Origin: Desulfuromusa sp.
GTDB taxonomy: Bacteria > Desulfobacterota > Desulfuromonadia > Desulfuromonadales > Geopsychrobacteraceae
NCBI GenBank assembly: GCA_016744675.1
Contig: JADGDX010000008.1
Coordinates: forward strand, 26,821-90,820
Direction: 5' to 3'
DNA: 64,000 nt
Notes under the pieces: generated by a model
Seen by the model: only the letters and a program-made list of their open reading frames with translations
The model's database searches: none
Told to the model about the DNA's origin: nothing
Position numbers and translations under genes: made by a program
Shown here: positions 4,222 to 42,467 of the stretch, one piece after another
How the letters are laid out: every line of letters begins with the position of its first letter
Numbering within the stretch: the first letter of the stretch is position 1

Positions 4222-5130
4222 CTATATGGGTGACGGAACGTCCATAACTTTAAAAATACAACGAGCAAAACTGCGTAACAATGGGTCTTCTTCTCGCCCT
4301 TTTTCAAAAATCACAGTGCGGCAACGCGAATGGGGAAACCCTTTGACATAGTGCCCGACCATCTGACCTGTTTGAAGATACTCACAGACAAGACTTTTAG
4401 ACATAAATGAAATACCACCACCAGAAAGAACTGTTTGACACGTCAAACGCAAGTCATCAGACGTGACAACACCTGCGAAATCATCCAGAGTTTTCCCCTG
4501 CTCATCCAACCCCCTTGAGATCAGTTGACGAGAGCTGCACCCCTCTTTACGAGCAAACAGACATAAATCCAACAGTTTTTCGATATCTAAGTTCGGCGTT
4601 GGCAACTTCAATTCGGGAGAGCTAACAAAAAGCAATTCATCCTGCGGCAACGGGTAACTTGTGAACATACTTAAATCGGCATCAGGACAATGTTCAACAA
4701 CGGCGATATCAAACTCCTTTGTCAAAATACCCTGAAGAGCCTGGTCGGGGCTATGAAGTAAAAACTTCAAATCGGCCGGAGCACCACTTTCAAGCATAAA
4801 GCGATTTAAAACTCCTGGCAGATATACGGTACCAAAAGTCGGCGTACAACACAGGGCAACTCGCTGCCGCTCTTTAATGCGCTTCAATTTCCCGCGTAAT
4901 GATTCCTCTATTCCGATAATTCTCTGTGCACTTTCCAGAACGATCTCTCCGGCTGATGTCAACAACAGAGCAACACCAGAGCGATCAAACAGGGAATAGC
5001 CAAATGCTTCTTCGAGAAACTTAATGCGTTGAGACACTGCAGACTGCGTGAGATGTAAGCTTCGCGCAGCACTGGAAAAGCTGCCCGTATCAACAACTGT
5101 CACTAAAGTTTTAAGGTATCGCGTATCCAT
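4222..5130 (-). CDS. LysR-family transcriptional regulator
   Basis: 302 aa. N-terminal wHTH (FSSAARSLHLTQSAVSQRIKFLE) followed by a LysR substrate-binding region. It is divergent from the cytochrome/barrel pair. Confidence 0.9.
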   Translation of the reverse strand: MDTRYLKTLVTVVDTGSFSSAARSLHLTQSAVSQRIKFLEEAFGYSLFDRSGVALLLTSAGEIVLESAQRIIGIEESLRGKLKRIKERQRVALCCTPTFGTVYLPGVLNRFMLESGAPADLKFLLHSPDQALQGILTKEFDIAVVEHCPDADLSMFTSYPLPQDELLFVSSPELKLPTPNLDIEKLLDLCLFARKEGCSSRQLISRGLDEQGKTLDDFAGVVTSDDLRLTCQTVLSGGGISFMSKSLVCEYLQTGQMVGHYVKGFPHSRCRTVIFEKGREEDPLLRSFARCIFKVMDVPSPI

Positions 5131-5389: not shown

Positions 5390-6406
5390 ATGTTATTCAA
5401 GTCAACCGGCACTAAAACCGGCAGACTGGTGAGCGTACTTCTCCTGGTAATGTTCTTGGCCGCATGTGCCACGGGCGCGATCAGACAGAAAATGCTTAGC
5501 ATGCCGCAGATTGAAGGTGCCAGCTATGTGGGACAGGACACCTGTCTCGAATGCCATGATGATATGGCGGGCGAAGATTTCGCCACAAGTACAGGCGGTG
5601 AAGGATTTGCCCACACCATTCATGGTCGCTTAGCCGACTTTGAGATGCTGGGTGCAGAAACAGGCTGCGAAACCTGCCACGGACCTGGCAGCCTACACGT
5701 AGACGCTGAGGGAGACCCCGATTCAATTCTCCGACCAGCAGAACTCTCCGCCGAAGAAGTCGGCGCCATCTGTGCTACCTGTCACACCGACGGTGACCTG
5801 ATGGACTGGACTCACAGTGAGCATGCATTAGCTGATCTCAGCTGTACTGACTGCCACAGCATGCACGCTGAAGAACCTCTTAAAGCTAGCCTTAAACAAG
5901 AAGACCCTGAGTTGTGCTACTCCTGTCACCAGGAAATGCAGGCAAAGTCTCACTTCCCATCTCATCACCCCATCAAAGAAGGCAAGATGAGCTGTGGTGA
6001 CTGCCACAACCCACACGGTGAGTTGACGACCCACGAACGCACCAACGATCTGTGCCTCGATTGCCATACGCGCTTCCAGGGTCCATTTATGTTCGGTCAT
6101 GCTCCGGTTGAAGACGACTGTACCATCTGTCACGATCCACATGGTTCCGTTGCTAACAACCTGCTCGCTCAGAATGAGCCGTTCTTGTGTTTGCAGTGCC
6201 ACGAAGGTCACTTTCATATGGTGCGCCAATCCAATTACATTGGTGGTGATGCAAGTACACCGTCGACAGAAGCCAACATAGCCAATCCAAACGGCCATGA
6301 AGGATTCCAGATGTCATACGGTACAAAGTGTACAACTTGTCACAAAGTGGTACACGGAAGTGATTTCCCATCGCAACCGCTCACCGGTGGCGGCTTGACC
6401 CGTTAA
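5390..6406 (+). CDS. Decaheme c-type cytochrome, MtrA/DmsE/PioA-like, with a lipoprotein-type signal peptide
   Basis: 338 aa with ten CXXCH motifs: CLECH, CETCH, CATCH, CTDCH, CYSCH, CGDCH, CLDCH, CTICH, CLQCH, CTTCH. Signal peptide with lipobox LAAC. Strong RBS aaaggagg upstream. Confidence 0.9.
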   Translation: MLFKSTGTKTGRLVSVLLLVMFLAACATGAIRQKMLSMPQIEGASYVGQDTCLECHDDMAGEDFATSTGGEGFAHTIHGRLADFEMLGAETGCETCHGPGSLHVDAEGDPDSILRPAELSAEEVGAICATCHTDGDLMDWTHSEHALADLSCTDCHSMHAEEPLKASLKQEDPELCYSCHQEMQAKSHFPSHHPIKEGKMSCGDCHNPHGELTTHERTNDLCLDCHTRFQGPFMFGHAPVEDDCTICHDPHGSVANNLLAQNEPFLCLQCHEGHFHMVRQSNYIGGDASTPSTEANIANPNGHEGFQMSYGTKCTTCHKVVHGSDFPSQPLTGGGLTR

Positions 6407-6422
6407 CTTGAGGAGGCTAAAA

Positions 6423-8879
6423 ATGAAGCAACGCCATATATGGCTGCTTGCATTACTGTCCATCCTGACTTTGATGACGACCACCACCATGGCAATAGCT
6501 GGAGAAGCAATGACCAGCGGCCATGTGGAACTCGGCATCTCGAGTATGGATATCGATGACAGTCCTGCACGCGTCAACGAATATGTAAAAACAACAGATG
6601 ATGACGATAACCCCATAAACCCAGCCATCAATCTTGGCTTGGAATATACTGAAGCGGGAATCGCTGCAGAAGTTGAAGCTGATGTCAAAGGTGAAGATAA
6701 TTACGATTTTAACCTTGAAACAGACATCAACAGAGTTTTTCGATTTGGTCTCGGATATCAGTCCTTCCAACACTTAAAGGACCATGAAACGCTGAGTCAA
6801 ATGGGTGCAACCGCACGTGATGATATTGCTGTTTCACAACCCAACGTTACCACTGACCAAATCTACGCCGATCTCATTGAATCAACAGGCAACGATTTTG
6901 TTTCTGTTGGTGGTGCCAGTCTATCAGCTTCACCTGGGGTTGATGGAGTTTGGAACACTGCAGACGATGTCCTGGCTTATGATCCAGCAGCAGCCTGGGC
7001 TGAAGAAGTCAGTAACGACTATATGGTCACCCGTCGTGAGCTCAAAAGTGAAGTCGACCTAGCTTTACCTGTACTGCCAAACATTGTCTTCCATGCGGGT
7101 TTGCGCATTGAGACACGTGAAGGTATGGAACAAGCCATCGGCCTGTCCAAGTGTGGCGGTTGTCACGTCAGTGCGAAAGGCAAGGAAATTGATGAGCGCA
7201 CCGAGGAGTTCACCATTGGCGCAACGGGTAAATTTGGTATTGTTACTTTCGACTATGAGTATTTAACTCGTGACTTTGAAGAACAAGCTGATGCTCCAAC
7301 ACGCTTCTACCTCAGACCAGCACCTGATGCTGGTGGTTTAGTCAAAGCAAGTAGCCTTTTGTATGACACTGGCGATTACGAGTTTGCAAAGACACCTGAC
7401 TCAGAAAAAGACTCACACGTGCTTCAAGCTCGTGTTGACTTGCCAAACAACACCATCATTTCTGCCAGCTACGTAAATGCTGATGTCGAAAGTGCTAAAA
7501 CTGATGAGCCAAGCGATTTCGATCTGGATGGCGACTCTCTTTCCAGTGAATACAACGGCTTTAATGGTAAAGTTGCAACTATTTTTGGCCCTGTTCGTTT
7601 GTCGGTTCGTGGTGGGTACTATGAGATTGAAGGTCCGGAGTATACTATCACTTATGAGAAGCGTGATGATGCGCCTACAGCTGGTGGTCGTCCCCAAACT
7701 CACGACATGAGCAACGACCAAGATTATATCTCGGCTGAATCACGCGAAGTCACTGATTTTGGTATTGATGCTGTCTACCGTTTGGCCAAAGCAACCACAC
7801 TCCGTCTCGGGTACGAATTTGAGGAGATTGAGCGTGAGCACGAAGAACTTGGTGAAACCGAGACTCATACAATCAAAGCTGCTGTTAAGACTCGTATTAA
7901 CAAAGACCTATCAGGTCGCATCAGCTATGAGTTTCAAGACATCGATGATCCTTTTGTTGCCCACAATGCTACCGGTATCGCTCAGGGAGAATTCCAAGAT
8001 GGAACTCTCGTAGGTGGATATGATCCAGTTTCAGGCCTCGCTTGGCTGGATACAGCTCAGTTTAATAATAGTGGTGCAGAAGCTACACCCGGTAACGATA
8101 ACTGGGTTTACTACTGGAACTCTGTTTACCCATCACGCGGGCTTGATGCAACCAATCAACCCGATGCTGTCCATGAAGTCAAACTAAGCTCAACTTGGAC
8201 ACCACGGGCTGACATGGCACTAACTTTCTTTATGCGCACTCGCTATGAAGAAAATGATGAAGTCAATTATGAGCAAACAACGTTCGTTCCGGGCATCAGC
8301 TTCTGGCATGCACCAAACGAAAAACTCAACTTGACAATGTCTTACACATTCAACAATCAAGACACAGAAAACCGCGCCTGCGTCGGCTGGTACCATGGCT
8401 GAGCGAACGCCGTTGCGTCGACCCAGTTTGGGTCGATCTGTAAGACCGTTGAATATGAATCAGACGTTCACACACTTGCTTTAAACGCAGATTTTCAGGC
8501 GACTGAAAAGCTCCTCTTAAATGCTGGTTTCACTTACAGCAAAGCTGATGATAGTTGGGATTGGGAATTCACCTCAAGATCTGCTGTATTAGCTTTAAAT
8601 TCTGGGAATCCATTAGCTGACAACTCTGGTGCGACTCCAGGAATGTATTCTGCCCAGAATTATGATAATTGGCAGTTAAATAATGAGATTTCTGGCTATT
8701 CAGATCTCTCCTACGAGCAGTATCAATTTACTGCTGGTGCAACCTACAACTTCACTGATACATTTTACACCAACGTATCAGGCACCTACGATATCTTCGA
8801 CATGGGTGAAGAATATGTTTATGATGATGAAGATGGCACTGCTTACTACGGTTACGTAGGGTTCGGTTGGAATTTCTAA
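6423..8879 (+). CDS. MtrB/PioB-type outer-membrane beta-barrel protein with one in-frame TGA at 8400-8402 (candidate selenocysteine or readthrough; otherwise a nonsense pseudogene)
   Basis: ATG at 6423 follows RBS gaggagg, and there is a signal peptide. The protein is long, Asp/Thr/Tyr-rich and has alternating-strand character. ORFs 6408-8402 and 8643-8879 lie in the same frame with only the TGA between them. The C-terminus YVGFGWNF is an OMP-type terminal-Phe signature. The gene sits immediately downstream of the decaheme cytochrome, as in mtrAB/pioAB. Confidence 0.65.
8417..8437 (+). promoter_or_regulatory. SECIS-like hairpin downstream of the in-frame UGA
   Basis: tcgaccca (8418-8425) pairs perfectly with tgggtcga (8429-8436), with loop gtt. 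The G-U of the loop sits at +27/+28 counted from the U of UGA, and the spacer from the UGA is 15 nt. Confidence 0.5.
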
Positions 8880-8911: not shown

Positions 8912-8941
8912 AGCCCGGCTGGAAACAGCCGGGCTTTTTTT
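8912..8941 (+). terminator. Rho-independent terminator after the barrel gene
   Basis: agcccggctg-gaaa-cagccgggct stem followed by a T8 run. Confidence 0.85.
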
Positions 8942-9064
8942 ATTCAAACCGAATATGGCCACCAGTACCAAGAAAGGCAAAACGAAAAGTTTAACGAAGA
9001 GATGCGGTCAGGTAGGATGCAGTTCATTGCACTCACCACATCCTACCTAATATTTTCTTGCACA

Positions 9065-9764: not shown

Positions 9765-11111
9765 TTACATTCTCATCGGATCACTCTTATACCCCAGAGC
9801 TTCCCAATTCATCCGACCATCATCACCATGACAATCGAGACAACCTAAAGCTTCATTGGCGGGTGCGACCATATGATCGATACGCCAGTGCATGGTTGTT
9901 TGCGCAAAATCATACTCGCCACTATAGGGAAGACCGCTTGCTTCCATCCCTATCTTGATGGAACGCTCCCAGTCAGCAGTTGTCCAGAAACCATCATCAC
10001 CATAGATATGGTTAGTGATAAAATAGTTGTTCTTGCTATCATAAACCTGCTTACCAGTATGGATCTTAAAAGGATGAATTTTAGCGGTGTTATCCGCAAT
10101 GTCACCCAAAGGGTAAGCCATTTTTGTCGGTACTGTTGGGTCAATTATATCTCCAACAAGATGAACACTTGCTTTGCCATTAAACCAGGCATAAGAGGGT
10201 TCAACATTTTTCACCCAAGTTTGGGTTCCAACAGACTTTTTATATCTCACAGTTTTACCATCAACACCGGCAGGAACAATGTCGCGACCGGCTGTTGACC
10301 AGTCCCAGTCCATCTGCGTTGCATCTTCTTTTGCAAAAACTGGAATATGACACGTCTGACAAGCAACTTTTGCAACGTGCGCATTCAGGCGCGATTCCGC
10401 ATGGGGATCGGCCTCATGACATTGCGTACAGGCGATCGCTTTGTAGCCATCAGCAGCCGTTGGTAAGTTTGCCCCGGAGATGTAATGGTTCTGTGTGACG
10501 TGGCAGGTCTGACACTGAAAATCGTTACTATCGGCATCCATATGAACGTCAACAGAGCGCTCAGGGTAATCGAGGACGAGACCGATATCACCATGCTTTG
10601 CGTTGTTTCCGCCACCACCGAGAGCATGGCAGGAGTTACAATTTTGACGCACGGGCATACCAACATTACGCGCTACTGTAGCCAACTTGACATGATCTGT
10701 CGGCCAACCTGAGTTATCGCCATCCTTATGATAAGTTCCAGTGGTATCATGACAAATCAGACAATCAACGCGGGTCTTATCGGAAAAATCGAAAGATTGA
10801 TCCGACCAACCATAGCCTGCGTGACATTCACTACAGTGAACTTCATTACTGACAATGGTACTACAGTAATTGTTGATAGCATTGATTTTACCAAGTTGAA
10901 CTTCTTTACCGTTAACAACTTGTGTCCGCGACCATGTCCAGTGAGGAGTTAACATAAAGTCAGTCGCTTCATCTTCGTGGCACTCCAGACAGACTTTTGT
11001 CACTTCACTTCCATCAGCGAAAGGACCTTTGATAAATTTACTATGATCAACAGCATGTGAGGTTAGAGACAGAGAGAGCAAGCCGACAACAATCAACAAT
11101 ATTTTATTCAT
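9765..11111 (-). CDS. Octaheme c-type cytochrome, tetrathionate reductase (OTR) family
   Basis: Eight CXXCH motifs: CLECH, CSECH, CLICH, CNSCH, CQTCH, CTQCH, CQTCH, CLDCH. About 450 aa with a signal peptide. The probable start is Met8 of the track ORF (MNKILLI), which follows gaagg. Confidence 0.82.
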   Translation of the reverse strand: MNKILLIVVGLLSLSLTSHAVDHSKFIKGPFADGSEVTKVCLECHEDEATDFMLTPHWTWSRTQVVNGKEVQLGKINAINNYCSTIVSNEVHCSECHAGYGWSDQSFDFSDKTRVDCLICHDTTGTYHKDGDNSGWPTDHVKLATVARNVGMPVRQNCNSCHALGGGGNNAKHGDIGLVLDYPERSVDVHMDADSNDFQCQTCHVTQNHYISGANLPTAADGYKAIACTQCHEADPHAESRLNAHVAKVACQTCHIPVFAKEDATQMDWDWSTAGRDIVPAGVDGKTVRYKKSVGTQTWVKNVEPSYAWFNGKASVHLVGDIIDPTVPTKMAYPLGDIADNTAKIHPFKIHTGKQVYDSKNNYFITNHIYGDDGFWTTADWERSIKIGMEASGLPYSGEYDFAQTTMHWRIDHMVAPANEALGCLDCHGDDGRMNWEALGYKSDPMRM

Positions 11112-11162
11112 ATCTACCTTCACCCTATTCATTAAAACATCAGTATTATTAAATGTTTTCTC

Positions 11163-11200
11163 TAAAACAAAGGGGAGAAACCCAGCGAGCTCTCCCCTTT
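11163..11200 (-). terminator. Hairpin/terminator between the porin-like gene and the octaheme cytochrome gene
   Basis: On the minus strand: aaaggggaga, a 12-nt loop, tctccccttt, then gtttta. Confidence 0.5.
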
Positions 11201-11225
11201 ATAGCGTTAAACGACATTGAAATGA

Positions 11226-12851
11226 TTAGAACTTCATCGTAATCTTGGCATATGCATCCCAAGCCGTATCAACAACTGGCAGAAGTGAATATGCGGTACC
11301 ATCCATGATATCATCAATTTTCTTTGGCTCACCAACCGGAGAACCGCTACCAGAATATTCATAGTCGTAGTAGAGGCCACCAACTTTGATAAAAGCATTC
11401 GGGTTAATATCAAATATGTAATAAGCTTCAACAACATGGCCACGGGTTGACAGCTTACTACCGAGCAGGTCATCTTGAGCTTGAGTAAATGGAGTCCAGT
11501 ATTCAGAGCCATAGTTGTACTCCAAGCCAAACTTACCCATTGGTGCAGGAGTGCGGATACCCACATAGACACCATAACCATCCTGCGTGTCATCATTTTG
11601 TGCACCAGTAGGGCTAACCCCTATCATATTACCACCACCGTCAAAAACCGGCTCATAAACCATATCATTTCCCATACCACCAAACATCCCAGCATTACCA
11701 TTAGAATCAAGCTGAGTCCAACCAACGGAACCAAACCAGACAAAACCATTGTCTTCCTCGCGAGTGAAACCTATCTGGGCTAGGTTGATGTCACCAATCA
11801 CAGTGCTTGGGGTATATCGAACATTGAAGTTCATATTGGGGAATTCAGCAGTATCCTGCGATATATAAGTAGTAAACATATCGACAAATGCATCTGGGAA
11901 AGCAAATTCACCTTTAAAACCATCGACCACGTCTTGAGCACGAAACAAGGTCATTTGAACGAAGGTTTGGCCATCATTGAACAGATCAATATTGAAACCA
12001 CCCAGATGGGTATCTTCAAGGTTGTCATTAATATCACTGTTAATCAGAGAACCATTTCCCCAGTCAGACTCAAATCCTTGCCCATAACAGAAGCGGATTG
12101 TCTGACCCTCTATCCCAGTAATTTTATCGAGGTGGTAACCAATTGTTAAACCATCAAAGTTGAAATCAACCAGATGACCGGATGGAGTTCCGCCACGTAA
12201 TTCATTAACTCGAAAATTGGATGGAGGGCCATATGTAGAAGGACGACGGCCAATTGAAAAATAGATGTCACTACCACCAATATCTTTCCAGTTAAAGAAA
12301 GCACGCTCAACTTTTAACAAATCACCAGAGGTTTTACCACTACTGGTTCCATCCATGGCAAAAGCATCCCAAGAATCAAAAACATTAGTTGAGGTTGAAT
12401 CTCCCCAATTTTTGTACATGGCCAAACGCCCAGAAAAGTTCATGTTGCTGGCGATATCGGCCTTCATATTTAAACGAAGACGAGTAGTGTACATCAGATC
12501 ATTATCGATATCCCTTTTTTCTAGAGGGAAAAATGGGGTGCCAGTATTCGGATTGATCATGGGCATTTCCACAACAGGATTACCTGGCATAGGCATCCGT
12601 ACCTTCATCCCGGGACTGAATACGACATTTTTGTAATGAAGAGAATCAACCGTATTCCGTAAATCCCCAGTAAAGCTGATCCGGTCCATCGCAGTATGCT
12701 TTTCTGGCCCTTCAAGGCGATCAGACAGGTCATCAAGCTCTTCGAGAATATCGGCGATTTGAGCTTGCAATTCTTCAACTGTCGGATCGGCAAACACCGT
12801 TGCAGGGATTGTCAGTAAAACAGCCAGAAGTAAAACTAAAAATCTGTTCAT
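11226..12851 (-). CDS. Putative outer-membrane beta-barrel/porin with an N-terminal coiled coil (DUF3373-like, recalled from memory)
   Basis: Signal peptide (LLAVLLTIPATVFA), then a coiled segment (VEELQAQIADILEELDDLSDRLE). The rest is long and Gly/Asp/Tyr/Phe-rich, ending in KITMKF (terminal Phe). AGGAGG lies 9 nt upstream of ATG 12851. Confidence 0.6.
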   Translation of the reverse strand: MNRFLVLLLAVLLTIPATVFADPTVEELQAQIADILEELDDLSDRLEGPEKHTAMDRISFTGDLRNTVDSLHYKNVVFSPGMKVRMPMPGNPVVEMPMINPNTGTPFFPLEKRDIDNDLMYTTRLRLNMKADIASNMNFSGRLAMYKNWGDSTSTNVFDSWDAFAMDGTSSGKTSGDLLKVERAFFNWKDIGGSDIYFSIGRRPSTYGPPSNFRVNELRGGTPSGHLVDFNFDGLTIGYHLDKITGIEGQTIRFCYGQGFESDWGNGSLINSDINDNLEDTHLGGFNIDLFNDGQTFVQMTLFRAQDVVDGFKGEFAFPDAFVDMFTTYISQDTAEFPNMNFNVRYTPSTVIGDINLAQIGFTREEDNGFVWFGSVGWTQLDSNGNAGMFGGMGNDMVYEPVFDGGGNMIGVSPTGAQNDDTQDGYGVYVGIRTPAPMGKFGLEYNYGSEYWTPFTQAQDDLLGSKLSTRGHVVEAYYIFDINPNAFIKVGGLYYDYEYSGSGSPVGEPKKIDDIMDGTAYSLLPVVDTAWDAYAKITMKF

Positions 12852-12898
12852 CAAGTATTTCCTCCTAATAAGAATTATTTATGTGGCAGGGCAACAAA

Positions 12899-13225
12899 CT
12901 AACCGCAAGTCTCTGGTGAAGGAGAATCGGCTGCTTTGTCAAAGAGAAACTGATGGATGTCTTTGAGATCTTTTTTAGAGAGATCTTTCATCACGCTACC
13001 GGAATGCTTCTTTGCCTTCTTTTTGAAGTAGCGATCCCATTGCGCCATGGTCTTCGACATTGGATTCAACTCTTCGGCTTCACCACCAGCGTTATGACAG
13101 CTTTTACAGTTATTTTTGAAAAGATGCTTTCCTTTGCGCGAGTTACCACCTTCGACAGCCAGAACACTGGTTGCAGTAAATGCCATAAGAATAAGTCCTA
13201 CCATTAACAGCTTTTTCATTTTCAT
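12899..13225 (-). CDS. Small monoheme c-type cytochrome (secreted)
   Basis: Single CKSCH motif and a signal peptide MKMKKLLMVGLILMAFTATSVLA. RBS aaggag lies upstream of the ATG at 13225. Confidence 0.8.
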   Translation of the reverse strand: MKMKKLLMVGLILMAFTATSVLAVEGGNSRKGKHLFKNNCKSCHNAGGEAEELNPMSKTMAQWDRYFKKKAKKHSGSVMKDLSKKDLKDIHQFLFDKAADSPSPETCG

Positions 13226-13666
13226 CCCCGATCTCCTTGTTAGTAATGACGACGCCAATGGGCGCCTTGTTTATCGAACTAGTCAAGATTACAATGTCTA
13301 CTATCACCTATAAGTTCAGCTTACAAGTCATTTTTAGACCATTATGTGGAATAAATAGCCATATAAGGATCTTATACGCCCATAAGTGACCGGTGATTAT
13401 ATATTTCAATCGCTATATTGATATGTTACGACTATACAAACAATGAAAAAACTAAATTCTATTTAACGGCTCTTTGTTGTTTATCCATCCGAACCCTTTC
13501 TCATAAAACCTCAATAACCACCTAACAAATAAGCATATCTTATAAACACATCAAGGATTCTTATTATTACAAATATTGTATATAATATCGGATTCATCCC
13601 CTTCTTCTGGACTTCATTGATCGAATAATATAGCCTCAGAAGAAACTAACATTTGGAGGTAAAACC

Positions 13667-14269
13667 GTGATCAAACTTGACTATAGCCAACACCAATGCC
13701 CCTATCCTGTCGTAGAAACCCGCAAGCAAATTCTCTCCAATCCGGGTCAAGCTCTTGAAGTTCAAGTTGGCGATAAAGCAGGACGTGATAACGTGTCTCG
13801 ACTTGCAGAAAAAATGGGTTATCAAGCTTCGGTAAAAAGCGCTGGAGATAACTTTAAAATCGAATTGACTCCTTTGAATCACGCACCAGAGACAACCCAA
13901 AAAGCCGAACAGCAAAATGGACCGATAAGCTCGGGCGAAACTGTCATCTATTGCGGCAGTGATCGCATGGGAGATGGCGACAACGAGTTCGGTCAGATCC
14001 TGATGAGGAATTTCCTCACCACACTGCTTGAAATGAATCCACTTCCAGACACGATTCTTTTCGTTAATAGCGGCATACATCTCACCACAGAAGGGTCGAC
14101 AGTCCTTGAAGCGTTAGAGGCACTAGAAACACGCGACGTTGATATTGCTAGTTGCGGACTTTGCCTTGATTTTTATCAGAAAAAAGACAAGTTAAAAGTT
14201 GGCAGGACAACCAATATGTTTGAGATGGTTGAAGTTCAATGCCAGGCGGATCGGGTTATCTGTCCGTAA
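13667..14269 (+). CDS. yedF: YedF-type sulfurtransferase-like selenium metabolism protein (TusA/SirA-like N-domain plus DsrE-like C-domain)
   Basis: 200 aa with a GTG start after ggagg. N-terminal CPYP motif as in the TusA fold. The C-terminal half has FVNSGI...SCGLCLDFY. Length and architecture match the ~200-aa YedF family as I recall it. Confidence 0.72.
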   Translation: MIKLDYSQHQCPYPVVETRKQILSNPGQALEVQVGDKAGRDNVSRLAEKMGYQASVKSAGDNFKIELTPLNHAPETTQKAEQQNGPISSGETVIYCGSDRMGDGDNEFGQILMRNFLTTLLEMNPLPDTILFVNSGIHLTTEGSTVLEALEALETRDVDIASCGLCLDFYQKKDKLKVGRTTNMFEMVEVQCQADRVICP

Positions 14270-36783: not shown

Positions 36784-39700
36784 TCATTTTTCAAGCAATT
36801 GACGGTACAGCTTCACATACTGAGAGGCCGAATTCCCCCAACTAAAATCAACAGCCATACCGCGTTTAACAACCTGCAGCCATCGCCGTCTCTGGCCATA
36901 GAGGGACAGTCCACGATCGATCGTTGCGAGTAATTGTCCGGCGTCGACATGATCAAAAACAAAACCATAACCATGCTTTGGTGAGGCATCCACATCTGTC
37001 ACACTATCAGCCAGACCGCCAGTACGACGGACAACCGGAAGAGCGCCATATTTCAGGGCTATCATCTGAGTCAAACCGCATGGCTCATAGCGACTCGGGA
37101 CAAGCAATAGATCCGCAGCGGCATACAAACGGTGAGACAATCCTTCATTGAAAGTCAGGTTAATCGATACCTGACCTAAATGCTTTCCCTGTTGCTCTTG
37201 CCAGAAAGACATTTGTTCCTCGCTTCCAGAGCCAAGAAGAACAAACTGCAGATTCCGCTCCAGCAGTTGCGGCCACATCGCTTCGATCAGATTGATCCCT
37301 TTTTGTGGATCAAGACGACTGACGACGACTACAAGGGCTTTACTGCTATCGATCTCAAGCCCTAGTTCTTGTTGCAGCGCTTTTTTACACAAACTTTTTC
37401 CACGCAGCTTCTCTGCACTGTATCGACTTTGCAAATGGATATCCGTTGCAGGATTCCAAAGCCGCAGATCGAGACCGTTAATAATGCCATGAAGGACATC
37501 ACGCCGGGACCGCAAGAGGCCATCAAAACCATGCCCCTGCTCTGGTTCTTGTATTTCGTTGCAGTATGTAGGAGAGACCGTTGTCACAAGATCGGATAAA
37601 TTAATTCCACCTTTGAGAAATGACATACGCCCGTAATACTCAAGGGCCTCAGGGGAATTCAGTTCTTGCGGCAAGTCTAACTCACGTAAGGATTGTGGAG
37701 AGAACATCCCCTGATAACCAAGGTTATGGATCGTTAGTACCGTTTTTATCCCGGCATAAAAGTCATCATCCTGATAAAAGCTTTTCAATAGCGGTGAGAC
37801 CAAGCCAGTCTGCCAATCATGCAGATGGATCAAGTCTGGTTTAAAGTCGGCAACTTTGATCAATTCCAGTACGGCTCGGGAAAAGAAACCAAATCGCAAA
37901 GCGTTATCGGCATAATCACCATAAGCTGTTCCATAAAGCTCAGGGCGATCAAAAAGCTCAGGCGTATCAACAAACCAGTAAGGAACACCATCATAGACCG
38001 CTTCCTTCAAACTCCCTCGGAAAGTGGTCCCCTGCAAAGGGACTTCAATACTTTTATCCAACTTTACCGGTGCTTCAGAACGACGCATCACCGATTGATG
38101 GCATGGGATAATTACCCGCACGTCATGCCCTAACTCTCGCAGAGCTCGGGGTAAAGAGCCGACAACATCTGCCAACCCACCCGTCTTGGCAAAAGGGGCA
38201 GCTTCTGAGGCGACAAAAAGGATTTTCATGCCACTGCCAAAGGGGACGGGAAGAACCTTTTCTTGGGGCTGCGCCGGGTCCATCAATTGCAACATGGTAT
38301 CAACACCATAGCCACTTTTTTCAGCCCATTTTTTCGCCTTATCCAGAGTCTTCAAAAGCGTGACGACCTGATCGTGGAATGCAGCGTTATCCAAAGACTC
38401 ATCACGGCTATTGGTCATTAATTTAAACTGCAGCAAGAGCAGACAGAGCAGCTCAAAAGGTTCTTTTCCAAACCAGTCGGTCTGCTCATGATAATGACAA
38501 TTCAATAAAGGCCTAAGGTCTCGATGATTAAAGAAACGATCAAGCAACACAAACAGCTCTGTTTCATCCAATGAAGAAGTCGCAGCGATAAGTTGTCCCA
38601 ATTCATCACAGTTTTTCGTGGTCAACAAATGAGCAGGAAAGAGCGTGTGAACGAGCACCTCAAGCAAAGAGTTTTGAGACAAGTTAACAAGGTTCGGGGC
38701 TTGATAAAGTGTCTTCAATATTTCTAGTTGTTTCGAAACTTTGACCTTCGCTTGCCCCGGTCGCTCAACAGCTAACAGTGCCTTAGCGCTCTCCCAACTT
38801 GGTTCAAGCAATAATCCATCGCGATCAAAGTAGAGATTTCTCCGCTGAGCGTCACCATAGCGCTGCCATAACTGATTCCAACGACCATCATTGTCTTGAA
38901 GGGGCTGAAAGTGCCCCACCACCCGACGCGCATAACCAGCAAGGTGAAAAACCCCGCCTTCGGTAAGAGTTGATGCTGGCTGAAGGGAATGTTCTCCACT
39001 CGCTAAATCCTCCATCAGGACAAAATCACTTGAGCAATCAATCCCGCAGGCAACCGTCAGGTTCAGGCTATCCCTGTCGGCCATCGCGACAGGCATACCA
39101 ATCTTTCCACTGATGGCATCCGATGAGTTATTGCAGATGACGAGTGATGTCTGTTCGCCCAAACCATTACTGTAAACAAAAATATTTTCTTCAACACCAC
39201 CATGAGTGGAGATAAAATCATACAATTGAAAACGTTCTGCGCCACTAAACAGAGCCCGTTGCCGTAAGAGAGGAAAAACAAGTTGCTTATGCCCTTTAAT
39301 CAGAGCGCTATCGGGTTCTTCTTGCCAGCGCGGAGCCAAATACTCCATCCCATATTTTTCATGTAACCCTTCGACCTGACCATGACCGAACATCGGCATT
39401 CCCGGCATCGTTGCCAACAAAGTAGCGACACAAAAATATTTATCAGCAGCGCCAAATTGTTCAACAGCAGGTTTTTCATCGGGGTTACTCATAAAATTGA
39501 CAAACCGCTGGAGGATTGCCGGATCGAATTCGAGAATATTTTTAAGCGTCTGACGATACTTCTCATTCTCTTCACGCTTGAGCATATTCATAAAGGCACT
39601 GTTGTAAACCCGATGCATCCCTAAGGTACGGACAAAGTACCCTTCCATCAGCCAAAAGGCTTCGGCCACGAGTAATGTATCGGGGGCTTCAAGCTGGACA

Positions 39701-41403
39701 CGATCAACCAGTTCACGCCAGAATTCTACGGGAAAATGGCGATTGAACTCCTCCTGACTTATCGCATGATCATTGCGTGAGGGAACCCCATCCCCCCCCC
39801 CAGGAAGGGGATACCAAAGGCGTTGAAAATGTTTTTTTGCCAGTGTCATAGCGGCGTCAAAACGAATAATGCGAAACCGTTGTGCAACATCAATAATCAA
39901 TCGAATCATTGCTTCACGAACTTCGGGCAACAGATAATTCAATTGAGCCGTATCGTTCCAAGGAAGATGGGTTCCATCGTTACCATGGTAGATAAAACGA
40001 ACGTCCCCATTGTGCCGATTCTGATAACGACACACAACCGCAGCCTCACTATGATCAAAGTAACCATCTTCAATCTGCATGGAATAGTCAGCGTCTTCAC
40101 TTAAGTCAGGTCCGTTAAATTGATATCCCGGATAAGGAGGGTGTGAAAGTTGGACAAACCAGTCAGGGTGTTCACGCAACAAGGCAGACTCTATCCCCGT
40201 ATGATTTGTTACCACATCACAGGCGAGATCAAGGCCATGGTGGCGACAGCGAGAACGTAAATTTTCTAAAGCACTATCTCCACCAAGATCAGAAGCAATC
40301 TGATAATCGTCAATGGCATAAGCCGAAGCAGCAACCTGAACCTGTCCGCTTTGATTTTTGATCTTTAATGATGCTTTTGAACGCTCCCACACCCCAATGA
40401 GCCAAAGGCTGGTAAACCCATAATTGCTCAGTTCAGCTAATTCCTCATCTGGAATTTGATCGAGGCGGGTAATATGAAAATGATATTTACGCGATAACTG
40501 TTCTAACCACACATAGGTTGACTTGGCCAATAGAACAGTTCGAGGCATCCACTCGAGATCGACAGTAAAATCGGCATACTCTTCATACATCGCAGCAGCG
40601 GGATCAAGTGCTGTCGTTTCGGGCTCTCCCTGAAAGTCGAACGTCTGCCCTTCTCGTTCATAGACTTCGATCGCTGAAGAGATTCTATCTTGCAAATCGG
40701 CAGGCAGAATCTCAGCCCAAACAGTTCGTAATAATTGGAGTTGTCCATGAAGCGTTGTTACTGTTTGAAGCGGTTCAAGCAAACGCCGCAAAAGCGATTG
40801 TGGCTGTTGCGGAAAGTGATCCTTTTCTTGCGGCAAGACATGGTCAATTTGCAATAATTGTTGTCGATAATCTGTGACATTCTGAAACAATTGTTCCTCG
40901 TCAGCAAACAACTCTGGACTTAACTTCAGAGCTGAGTTTTGGCTCTGAGTAAAGAGAAGAACCATTTCAATCAAGATATCTTTGACATGATCATTGCTTT
41001 CCGAAGGGGCAATGATCTCAGTTGGAATGACAACGTTCAGCTCAACAGGGACGGCAGGAAAAAACTGTAAAAACTCATACAGAGTCTCTTCCATCTTGGG
41101 AAGATCAACGACACCCCCAGATATTTCAATCTGGTTTTTCATAACGGAACAATGGCGACTTGAGAGAAAGTCGCCTGCAATCCGACGCAACACTAGGTTC
41201 AGGGTCGTGAGAAGTTCCAATTCAGCTGCGTTCAATGCTGTCTCTGAAAATTGTCGCAGGTAATCTGCTAGAAGGTGGCGAAAGAAGGTCGGCTTGGGCC
41301 GCGATTCTTTTTCGAACTGTTCCTTAAGCACAACTTCATCCCAGGCCTTGCGGCCACACTGCACCCCCAATGGATAATATTCTTTCAAAAAATCGTTCGA
41401 CAT
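36784..41403 (-). CDS. glgA: Fusion protein: N-terminal ~1050 aa GH13-like alpha-amylase-family module plus a C-terminal full-length glycogen synthase (GT5) module
   Basis: GH13-like regions: [29 protein letters not shown] and FMSNPDE. The C-terminal 481 aa begins [27 protein letters not shown] (classical GlgA N-terminus, internal Met codon at 38227-38229). The start is set at [10 protein letters not shown] (41403) because the longer track ORF overlaps the upstream gene. Confidence 0.85.
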   Translation of the reverse strand: [1539 protein letters not shown]

Positions 41404-41429
41404 ATGATGGCTACTTTTCTCTATGAATC

Positions 41430-42467
41430 TCAATAATTTCTTAAATCGGCATTGCGCAAAAACTCGGCGGCCTCTTCGGGAGGAGTTGGATTGATATGGA
41501 ATCCGGACCCCCACTCAAAACCAGCAACCCGTGTCAGCTTGGGAACTAACTCAATATGCCAGTGATAATCGGAAGGAAAAGAAGCCCAGTAATCGGGCCG
41601 ACCCCAGCGCAAATGCATCGGGGGAGCATTATGCAGAATGAATGAATAGGGAGGATCTTTCAGGACGGCACGCATACGCAACAATGTATTACGCAGCGTT
41701 TCAGCCAGTAAAAGAAGCTTCTGATCGGTCTGAAGAGTAAAGTCATGGCTATGCTCTTGGGGGGCAATCATCAGTTCAAAGGGAAATCGTGCTGCGTACG
41801 GAACATAAACGAGAAAATTGCCATCATCACGCACAATACGATCTGTTGCCGTTTTCTCCTGCTTAATCAGATCACAGATCAGACAGCGTTCCTTACGCTG
41901 AAAATGCTCACGGGAAGTGTTGAGTTTCGTTGCCACCAGAGGTGGAATCAGTGGGACGGCAATTAACTGCGAATGGGAATGAGGAATATTTGCAGAAGCC
42001 TCGATCCCATGATTTTTAAAAATAAAAATATAGCGAAAGCGACTATCATTGCGCAAATCAAGCATTCGGGCTCGATATGCTTTTAGAACCTCGGCTATTT
42101 CTTCAACTGACAAATCCCCAAGACACTTATCATGGTCGGGCGTTTCGATAATAATTTCGTGGGCACCAACACCGTTCATCCTATCGTAAAGGCCTTCGGC
42201 CTGGTTATCGAGCTCCCCTTCAATGCGTAAGGCGGGAAACTTATTCGGAATAACCCTAACTTTCCAACCAGTCTGGTTTGGAGCACTTCCATCAGGACGA
42301 TGAGCATAGATTTCTGGGGGTGTTTTATCTTCATTTTTATCACAGAATGGGCAAGAAGACATTTCGGCCACTTGTCGCTGCTGTAAGAAATCCTGGGGTC
42401 GACGACTCTGACCCTTGGCAATAATGGCCCAGTTATTTTTCAATGGATCCCAACGAAATTCAGACAA
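41430..42467 (-). CDS. GalT-like HIT-superfamily nucleotidyltransferase (galactose-1-phosphate uridylyltransferase family)
   Basis: 345 aa. N-terminal Zn motif CPFC and active-site HSHSQ (HxHxQ). Two half-domains as in GalT. Confidence 0.8.
   Translation of the reverse strand: MSEFRWDPLKNNWAIIAKGQSRRPQDFLQQRQVAEMSSCPFCDKNEDKTPPEIYAHRPDGSAPNQTGWKVRVIPNKFPALRIEGELDNQAEGLYDRMNGVGAHEIIIETPDHDKCLGDLSVEEIAEVLKAYRARMLDLRNDSRFRYIFIFKNHGIEASANIPHSHSQLIAVPLIPPLVATKLNTSREHFQRKERCLICDLIKQEKTATDRIVRDDGNFLVYVPYAARFPFELMIAPQEHSHDFTLQTDQKLLLLAETLRNTLLRMRAVLKDPPYSFILHNAPPMHLRWGRPDYWASFPSDYHWHIELVPKLTRVAGFEWGSGFHINPTPPEEAAEFLRNADLRNY

Follow-up and report, generated by a model that had tools for sequence, protein, structure and literature searches.

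The forward strand of a 64,000-nucleotide stretch of Desulfuromusa sp. DNA (assembly GCA_016744675.1, contig JADGDX010000008.1, positions 26,821 to 90,820; the whole stretch is called the window below) very probably encodes, at positions 6423-8879, one 818-residue MtrB-like porin of the GSU2204 family whose in-frame UGA at 8400-8402 is decoded as selenocysteine (Sec). A preliminary description of the window had proposed the gene as a candidate selenoprotein, and the proposal is upheld by an invariant TGA in two clades, a covarying hairpin, a cysteine-containing homologue and a full-length 26-strand model. The family is already catalogued as a selenoprotein family, from sequence analysis only in everything we found, and the existence of the selenoprotein is in itself no discovery. 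What we add is a quantified covariation of its selenocysteine insertion sequence (SECIS), a second Sec clade in the same register, one Cys and one Gly form, the flanking motif CVGWYHG-U-AN, and the inference that the Sec residue and a haem-binding motif share one face of the barrel. The features on which this reading depends are the following.

6423..8879, forward strand: full-length porin gene, 818 codons including Sec660, then TAA at 8877-8879
8400..8402, forward strand: UGA predicted to be read as selenocysteine, residue 660 (TGA in both clades; Cys and Gly variants at this column)
8403..8876, forward strand: C-terminal 158 residues, with predicted strands 22-26 and the terminal Phe (in-frame conservation; model of the homologue P0251, E659-808)
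8418..8436, forward strand: putative bacterial SECIS core with a stem of 8 bp, the apical loop GUU and a UGA-to-loop distance of 23 nt
8912..8945, forward strand: predicted intrinsic terminator of the cytochrome-porin unit, 10-bp stem with 8 GC pairs, then TTTTTTATTC

The porin gene opens with an ATG at 6423, preceded by the Shine-Dalgarno sequence GAGGAGG at 6410-6416, and the N-terminus of its product is a signal peptide (...MAIA, followed by GE). From this ATG, 659 codons lead to ...NRACVGWYHG and the TGA, after which the same frame continues for 158 sense codons to ...AYYGYVGFGWNF (...YYGYVGFGWNF) and the TAA, so that the peptide across the UGA site is GWYHG-U-ANAVASTQFGSICK. The open frame beyond the TGA is thus as first described, and so is the absence of a ribosome-binding site for a start within it; the piece after the UGA has no Shine-Dalgarno sequence, no signal peptide and no conserved start. 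The terminal Phe, which is usual for barrels assembled by the beta-barrel assembly machinery (BAM), is likewise present only on read-through and missing from a product that ends at the UGA. Elsewhere in the window TGA is an ordinary stop, ending 15 of the 39 open reading frames (ORFs) of at least 250 codons. When the window was scanned for in-frame TGA codons between long ORFs, the cases other than 8400 were ordinary junctions where annotated genes were concerned (TrkA/TrkH, and a glycogen-synthase fusion with the neighbouring alcohol dehydrogenase gene) and short unannotated frames otherwise. On the forward strand between 5100 and 9200, the terminator at 8912-8935, which lies after the TAA and carries a T-run, is the sole strong one, and nothing comparable follows 8402.

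The TGA and the frame behind it are conserved across the family. A search with the read-through protein returned 250 homologues, and the 120 listed, with lengths of 606-680 aa, reach just 78-81% coverage of the query; CVGWYHG is invariant as the protein end in 24/24 aligned homologues, down to about 53% identity. Locus DNA was sampled through protein look-up (2 loci) and from genome assemblies (51 loci), the latter mostly Desulfuromonadales metagenome-assembled genomes, plus Desulfuromusa kysingii DSM 7343 and Desulfuromonas sp. AOP6. All 50 window-clade loci that reach the Sec column (48 distinct sequences) have TGA there and never TAA, TAG or a sense codon. The C-terminal part is conserved as well: the window-clade loci, L053 excepted, have 140-165 further in-frame codons with Phe as the last residue, and F is the terminal residue in 42/42 full-length reconstructions. 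A search with the C-terminal 158 residues retrieved only gene-caller-split fragments of 87-162 aa. Alignments that mixed N-terminal sequences with C-terminal fragments (A3, A5, A6) were discarded because MAFFT misplaced the fragments (A3 and A6) or the ends of N-terminal sequences (A5).

Two observations concern individual sites or copies in this sample. At L053:4855-5080 the TGA and the hairpin are present and the downstream frame is lost after 74 codons, probably through a frameshift, misassembly or decay of the copy. Synonymous sites in the stretch corresponding to 8379-8411 are near-frozen: the codon before the TGA is GGC in 46/46 sequences, the codon after it GCG in 43/46 and GCT in 3/46, and the next one AAC or AAT in 44/46 and GAC or GAT in 2/46, while TAC CAT is also almost invariant. 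This pattern suggests that the UGA context may be under constraint beyond that of the protein sequence and the hairpin.

The hairpin tcgaccca-gtt-tgggtcga lies 15 nt past the TGA, as the preliminary description had reported, and folds alone at -11.7 kcal/mol. Bacterial SECIS (bSECIS) elements are defined by a loop of 3-9 nt, a stem of 4-16 bp, a G at loop position 1 or 2, a UGA-to-loop distance of 16-37 nt, and a minimum free energy of -7.5 kcal/mol or lower (PMC13188914). With its 3-nt GUU loop, 8 bp, 23-nt spacing and folding energy, the window hairpin falls within every one of these limits, and, together with the covariation of its stem, this supports the earlier comparison of its geometry with bacterial SECIS elements. 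Of 55 Sec-type loci, 52 passed a strict perfect-stem search, and 3 failed because of an internal mismatch or marginal energy. When 46 distinct sequences were aligned without gaps, at least 97% of cells were paired between stem columns 41-47 and 51-57, and the loop bases G and U were invariant. The pair 44-54 is CG in 23 sequences, GC in 19, UA in 3 and GU in 1, with none unpaired, and the pair 43-55 alternates between AU (25) and GU (20). The covariation score was 0.221, compared with 0.148 +/- 0.011 for shuffles (0/500 reached 0.221), and slid registers gave 0.076 at most. Within the encoded Ser-X-Gln-Phe-Gly-Ser, the second base of codon X and the Gly wobble base covary in 44/44 sequences, which is more than protein constraints alone would produce.

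The hairpin resembles the E. coli fdhF SECIS and the Zhang and Gladyshev bSECIS model (PMC13188914) in being a stem-loop immediately 3' of the UGA within coding sequence, with a small G-first apical loop and a spacing of 16-37 nt; it differs in that the stem is a plain 8 bp with a 3-nt loop and no conserved bulged U was seen in its upper part. RNAfold lengthened the stem at its base by pairing columns 35-39 with 59-65, an extension that was dropped because columns 35-39 are only 40-90% paired. Four loci (L015:4831-4890, L016:4861-4920, L023:4792-4851 and L034:4873-4932) carry 9-11 inserted residues or another peptide immediately behind the UGA. There the hairpins differ or are shifted (e.g., GCGACGCA-GUC-UGCGUUGC) and still lie within bSECIS spacing, so the predicted SECIS is remodelled in these loci with its position kept. 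A scan of the whole window against Rfam at the gathering threshold gave 0 hits, and a scan of 8340-8520 at E up to 10 gave chance matches alone and no SECIS family.

A sister clade and two sense-codon forms provide the comparison between UGA-containing and UGA-free relatives. In an exhaustive HMMER search with the C-terminal part, P0215 (767 aa) was the single full-length relative; it aligns with the read-through protein over residues 3-818 at 26% identity, and both halves therefore belong to one polypeptide. Its 23 nearest relatives (P0228-P0250) are cut at 75-79% coverage, and the four of these sister-clade proteins that we examined end in ...LFGG or ...LFAG. In 5/5 sister-clade loci TGA comes next, and the frame then stays open for 149-155 codons up to a terminal Phe. 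This clade is only about 26% identical in protein to the window clade, and its hairpin, GUG(A/G)GCCA-GGU-UGGCUC(A/G)C, has the same 15-nt offset, 8 bp and a 3-nt G-first loop. At the Sec column, the Desulfuromonas sp. protein P0251 (809 aa; L056:1490-3919), which NCBI names 'GSU2204 family CXXCH-containing (seleno)protein', has TGC (Cys), and P0215 (L057:3776-6079) has GGA (Gly). Neither carries a comparable hairpin, the best candidates having -5.7 and -5.9 kcal/mol and a different geometry. The full-length relatives found thus comprise one Cys form and one Gly form amid hundreds of calls ending at Sec. Together, the Sec/Cys pair, the SECIS confined to UGA forms and the exclusive use of TGA are the standard signature of a selenoprotein gene.

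The encoded protein matches the NCBIfam model NF041027 (GSU2204_Se_pt_1) with 627.3 bits against a cut-off of 350, over residues 14-659 and profile positions 2-580 of 580, and the model stops exactly at the Sec. Pfam MtrB_PioB (PF11854) is matched with E 2.3e-19 and 69.9 bits against 23, over just profile positions 11-398 of 635, whereas TIGR03509, the model for MtrB/PioB proper, gives 45.7 bits against a cut-off of 240; the porin thus falls outside that subfamily but within the superfamily. A profile of the N-terminal part found no match in the PDB by sequence. The structure modelled, with AF2, was that of the full-length Cys homologue P0251, standing in for the window protein. This model has 26 long strands (mean pLDDT 69.6, pTM 0.69), and its best PDB match is MtrB, 6R2Q_B (E 1.7e-20, TM 0.54/0.65), with about 12% sequence identity in the structural alignment; the matches ranked next do not reach a query-normalised TM of 0.35. 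Strands 22-26 are made up by the residues that follow the Sec column. Connections after even strands have 2-6 residues and those after odd strands are mostly long, up to 73 residues. Short periplasmic turns and long extracellular loops are the usual porin pattern.

Three sites in the barrel protein bear on what the Sec might do there.

7152..7166, forward strand: motif CGGCH for c-type haem binding within the barrel protein (C244, C247, H248)
8379..8381, forward strand: Cys653, 7 residues before Sec (39 C, 2 A and 1 D of 42)
8439..8441, forward strand: Cys673, 13 residues after Sec (C in 40/42; the exceptions are H, in a sister-clade sequence, and Y, in the Cys form)

The CXXCH motif, which gives the family part of its name and had gone unmentioned in the preliminary description, is invariant in three alignments (24/24, 59/59 and 42/42 sequences), in both clades and in the Cys and Gly forms. 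In the P0251 model it lies between strands 7 and 8 and the Sec column between strands 21 and 22; because fourteen strands separate them, the two share the long-loop face, and we infer from this model that Sec660 and CXXCH would be on the same side, which is extracellular by the usual porin rule. The two Cys residues stand where the preliminary description had noted them. They are invariant in the window clade, some members of the sister clade have them and some do not, and the Cys-form P0251 has neither. A selenylsulfide pair is therefore not a family-wide function, although it is possible in the window clade, to judge from its sequences.

By analogy with the established bacterial Sec pathway, SelB-GTP-Sec-tRNASec would bind the hairpin at 8418-8436 while the UGA occupies the ribosomal A site, outcompeting RF2. 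Termination at the UGA would instead give a 659-residue product without strands 22-26 and the terminal Phe, which should not assemble. In the assembled form, the decahaem cytochrome encoded immediately upstream (5390-6406) would thread the barrel so that electrons cross the outer membrane, as in MtrCAB (PDB 6R2Q).

Several observations weigh against decoding of the UGA as Sec or limit how far it can be taken. The fold of 8397-8450 as a single sequence is no better than that of shuffles (z = -1.5, with 16/200 shuffles folding at least as well), so the SECIS case rests on the cross-sequence comparison, and since the stem sits in conserved coding sequence, its conservation is partly protein-driven. 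The 64-kb window holds no tRNA genes and hence no tRNA-Sec, and SelA, SelB and SelD were absent from an NCBIfam scan of 30 further window ORFs; the Sec machinery is accordingly deduced from taxonomy and from a YedF marker gene only. Selenoprotein families do not typically have so few Cys forms, and P0215, with its Gly, means that the residue at the Sec column can be lost. In the P0251 model, the loops that hold CXXCH and the Sec column both have pLDDT below 50. Our literature search, in which just two papers mentioned GSU2204, found no experimental selenium incorporation, haem attachment or full-length product for any GSU2204 member.

Some of these points would also fit read-through that does not depend on a SECIS, in which a near-cognate or suppressor tRNA (e.g., for Trp or Cys) decodes the UGA and the hairpin merely slows termination: the inserted residue is not identifiable from sequence alone, the Sec machinery is out of sight in the window, and the Gly variant implies that Sec chemistry is dispensable in some member. 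We nevertheless consider this improbable, as every Sec-type locus examined uses TGA exclusively, the hairpin fits bSECIS spacing, loop size and the G-first loop, and both sense-codon forms are without it. The chemically related sense-codon homologue carries Cys, making a classic Sec/Cys pair, and NCBI curators named the family a (seleno)protein. The host order is moreover a documented Sec user, with 6 selenoprotein genes including SelD in Desulfuromonas acetoxidans and 8 in Geobacter species (PMC1794560), and 13 each in D. soudanensis and G. sulfurreducens (PMC12013277).

Still less probable is genuine termination, with a 659-residue product and the downstream 158 codons forming a separate small gene or the second polypeptide of a split barrel, even though all automatic public gene calls end at the TGA and call a short downstream ORF. 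The downstream piece has no conserved start, the fragments called vary from 87 to 162 aa, and with neither a Shine-Dalgarno sequence nor a signal peptide the piece has no way to the outer membrane. In the Cys and Gly homologues one polypeptide comprises both parts and aligns over the junction, the 659-residue product lacks strands 22-26 and the terminal Phe, and the frame across the TGA is kept in all loci, L053 losing it only later. A single-base change could turn TGC, TGT or TGG into TGA, yet a sequencing or assembly error or a pseudogene in the window is hardly credible, given the same TGA in 48 distinct sequences of independent assemblies and in a second clade, and strong purifying selection on both flanks; a damaged copy looks like L053. 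We leave a similarly minute chance to explanations not considered here. Decoding of the UGA as Sec within a single 818-residue porin accordingly remains by far the best-supported account.

What the Sec residue would do in the porin is a separate matter. Sec660 could form a selenylsulfide with C653 or C673, serve as a haem ligand, or bind a chalcogen or metal. There is no MtrC-type gene after the porin gene in the window, and the porin haem and Sec may therefore form a redox site at the outer end of the conduit. We regard it as a tentative and rather unlikely proposal that the porin is itself a redox enzyme, in which the haem in loop 7/8 and Sec660 in loop 21/22 would jointly act as catalytic site or terminal electron exit in a conduit of two genes without an MtrC-type cytochrome. 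If true, this would place a selenocysteine at the bacterial cell surface within a beta-barrel, of which we know of no experimental demonstration. The question of Sec function is tractable because cultured hosts exist, namely Desulfuromusa kysingii DSM 7343 and Desulfuromonas sp. AOP6.

Among named systems, the NF041027 GSU2204 family is the one to which the window protein belongs; the two share the CXXCH motif and a GSU2203-family decahaem neighbour, and nothing essential differs. The likeness to MtrB (6R2Q chain B) and PioB/MtoB consists in PF11854, the 26-strand barrel of the Cys-homologue model and an MtrA/DmsE-type decahaem gene immediately upstream, and PioAB and MtoAB are likewise two-gene units without an MtrC-type gene. 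Unlike MtrB, which has an N-terminal CXXC and, to our knowledge, neither CXXCH nor Sec, the window porin has a CXXCH haem motif together with the predicted Sec. ExtKL (GSU2937-2936), of the extHIJKL porin-cytochrome cluster of Geobacter sulfurreducens, is also a predicted selenoprotein in an outer-membrane conduit and is also split by its UGA into two gene calls, but its Sec is in a multihaem cytochrome and not in the porin, and it belongs to the unrelated family NF040886.

The preliminary description was out of date in one respect, namely in knowing of no selenocysteine described in the porin component of such a conduit, for NF041027 is curated as a (seleno)protein and appears in two reviews. 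It is catalogued as a predicted selenoprotein under the name 'GSU2204 family CXXCH-containing protein' (PMC13188914), and the selenoprotein reviews of 2022 and 2026 list the GSU2204 family with '-' in the motif column. The source that both give for it is Zhang and Gladyshev 2008 (PMC2398784), a paper whose main text mentions no outer-membrane or cytochrome-associated protein, and the original prediction was not found there. The sole functional data we found are an approximately 2-fold induction of GSU2203 and GSU2204 with iron oxides.

These results have a direct consequence for annotation, in that the 659-aa calls and the orphan fragments of 87-162 aa would be halves of one selenoprotein and should be merged. 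The public collections searched hold hundreds of calls ending at the Sec and dozens of downstream fragments, which amounts to a systematic annotation error. Database entries for the GSU2204 family nearly all stop at the Sec; the C-terminal remainder is entered as a hypothetical protein of its own, in one case under the name 'long-subunit fatty acid transport protein'. With this family, a predicted selenoprotein also occurs in a setting other than that of the usual thiol oxidoreductases of cytoplasm or periplasm, namely as a porin of the metal- and sulfur-respiring Desulfuromonadia.

The porin gene is accompanied by the following genes.

4222..5130, reverse strand: divergent LysR-type regulator (Pfam HTH_1 and LysR_substrate; same position in L001 and L003)
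5390..6406, forward strand: decahaem c-type cytochrome of the GSU2203 family (OmcK-like, MtrA/DmsE-type), presumed to be the partner that sits in the barrel
13667..14269, forward strand: YedF, a selenium-metabolism marker (TIGR03527, 190.6 bits against 110, E 2.6e-56), context only

The cytochrome matches NF041028 with 462 bits against 325 and TIGR03508 (DmsE-family decahaem) with 241 bits against 192, and in every locus with an inspected gene table the porin gene is directly preceded by a multihaem cytochrome gene (Pfam Paired_CXXCH). GSU2203-family cytochromes are called OmcK (PMC4070692, PMC13194489). The YedF-type gene is the one that the preliminary description had pointed out nearby, and a TusA-domain gene occupies its syntenic position in L003.

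Between the conduit and YedF, the reverse strand carries three genes at 9765-13258. One encodes a cytochrome of the octahaem tetrathionate-reductase family (TIGR04315, E 9e-164) and another a 542-aa DUF3373 protein; the third, an ORF at 12899-13258, corresponds by synteny to a small c-type cytochrome in L003. The cluster adjoins the conduit and is followed by YedF on the other strand, the whole arrangement being syntenic in L003, and it may be a second redox module related to sulfur or selenium. Further along the window, a 1576-aa ORF at 36784-41514 on the reverse strand contains a complete glycogen synthase GlgA in residues 1096-1576; its N-terminal 1100 residues show a faint alpha-amylase-like match only, which makes it an unusually large fusion.

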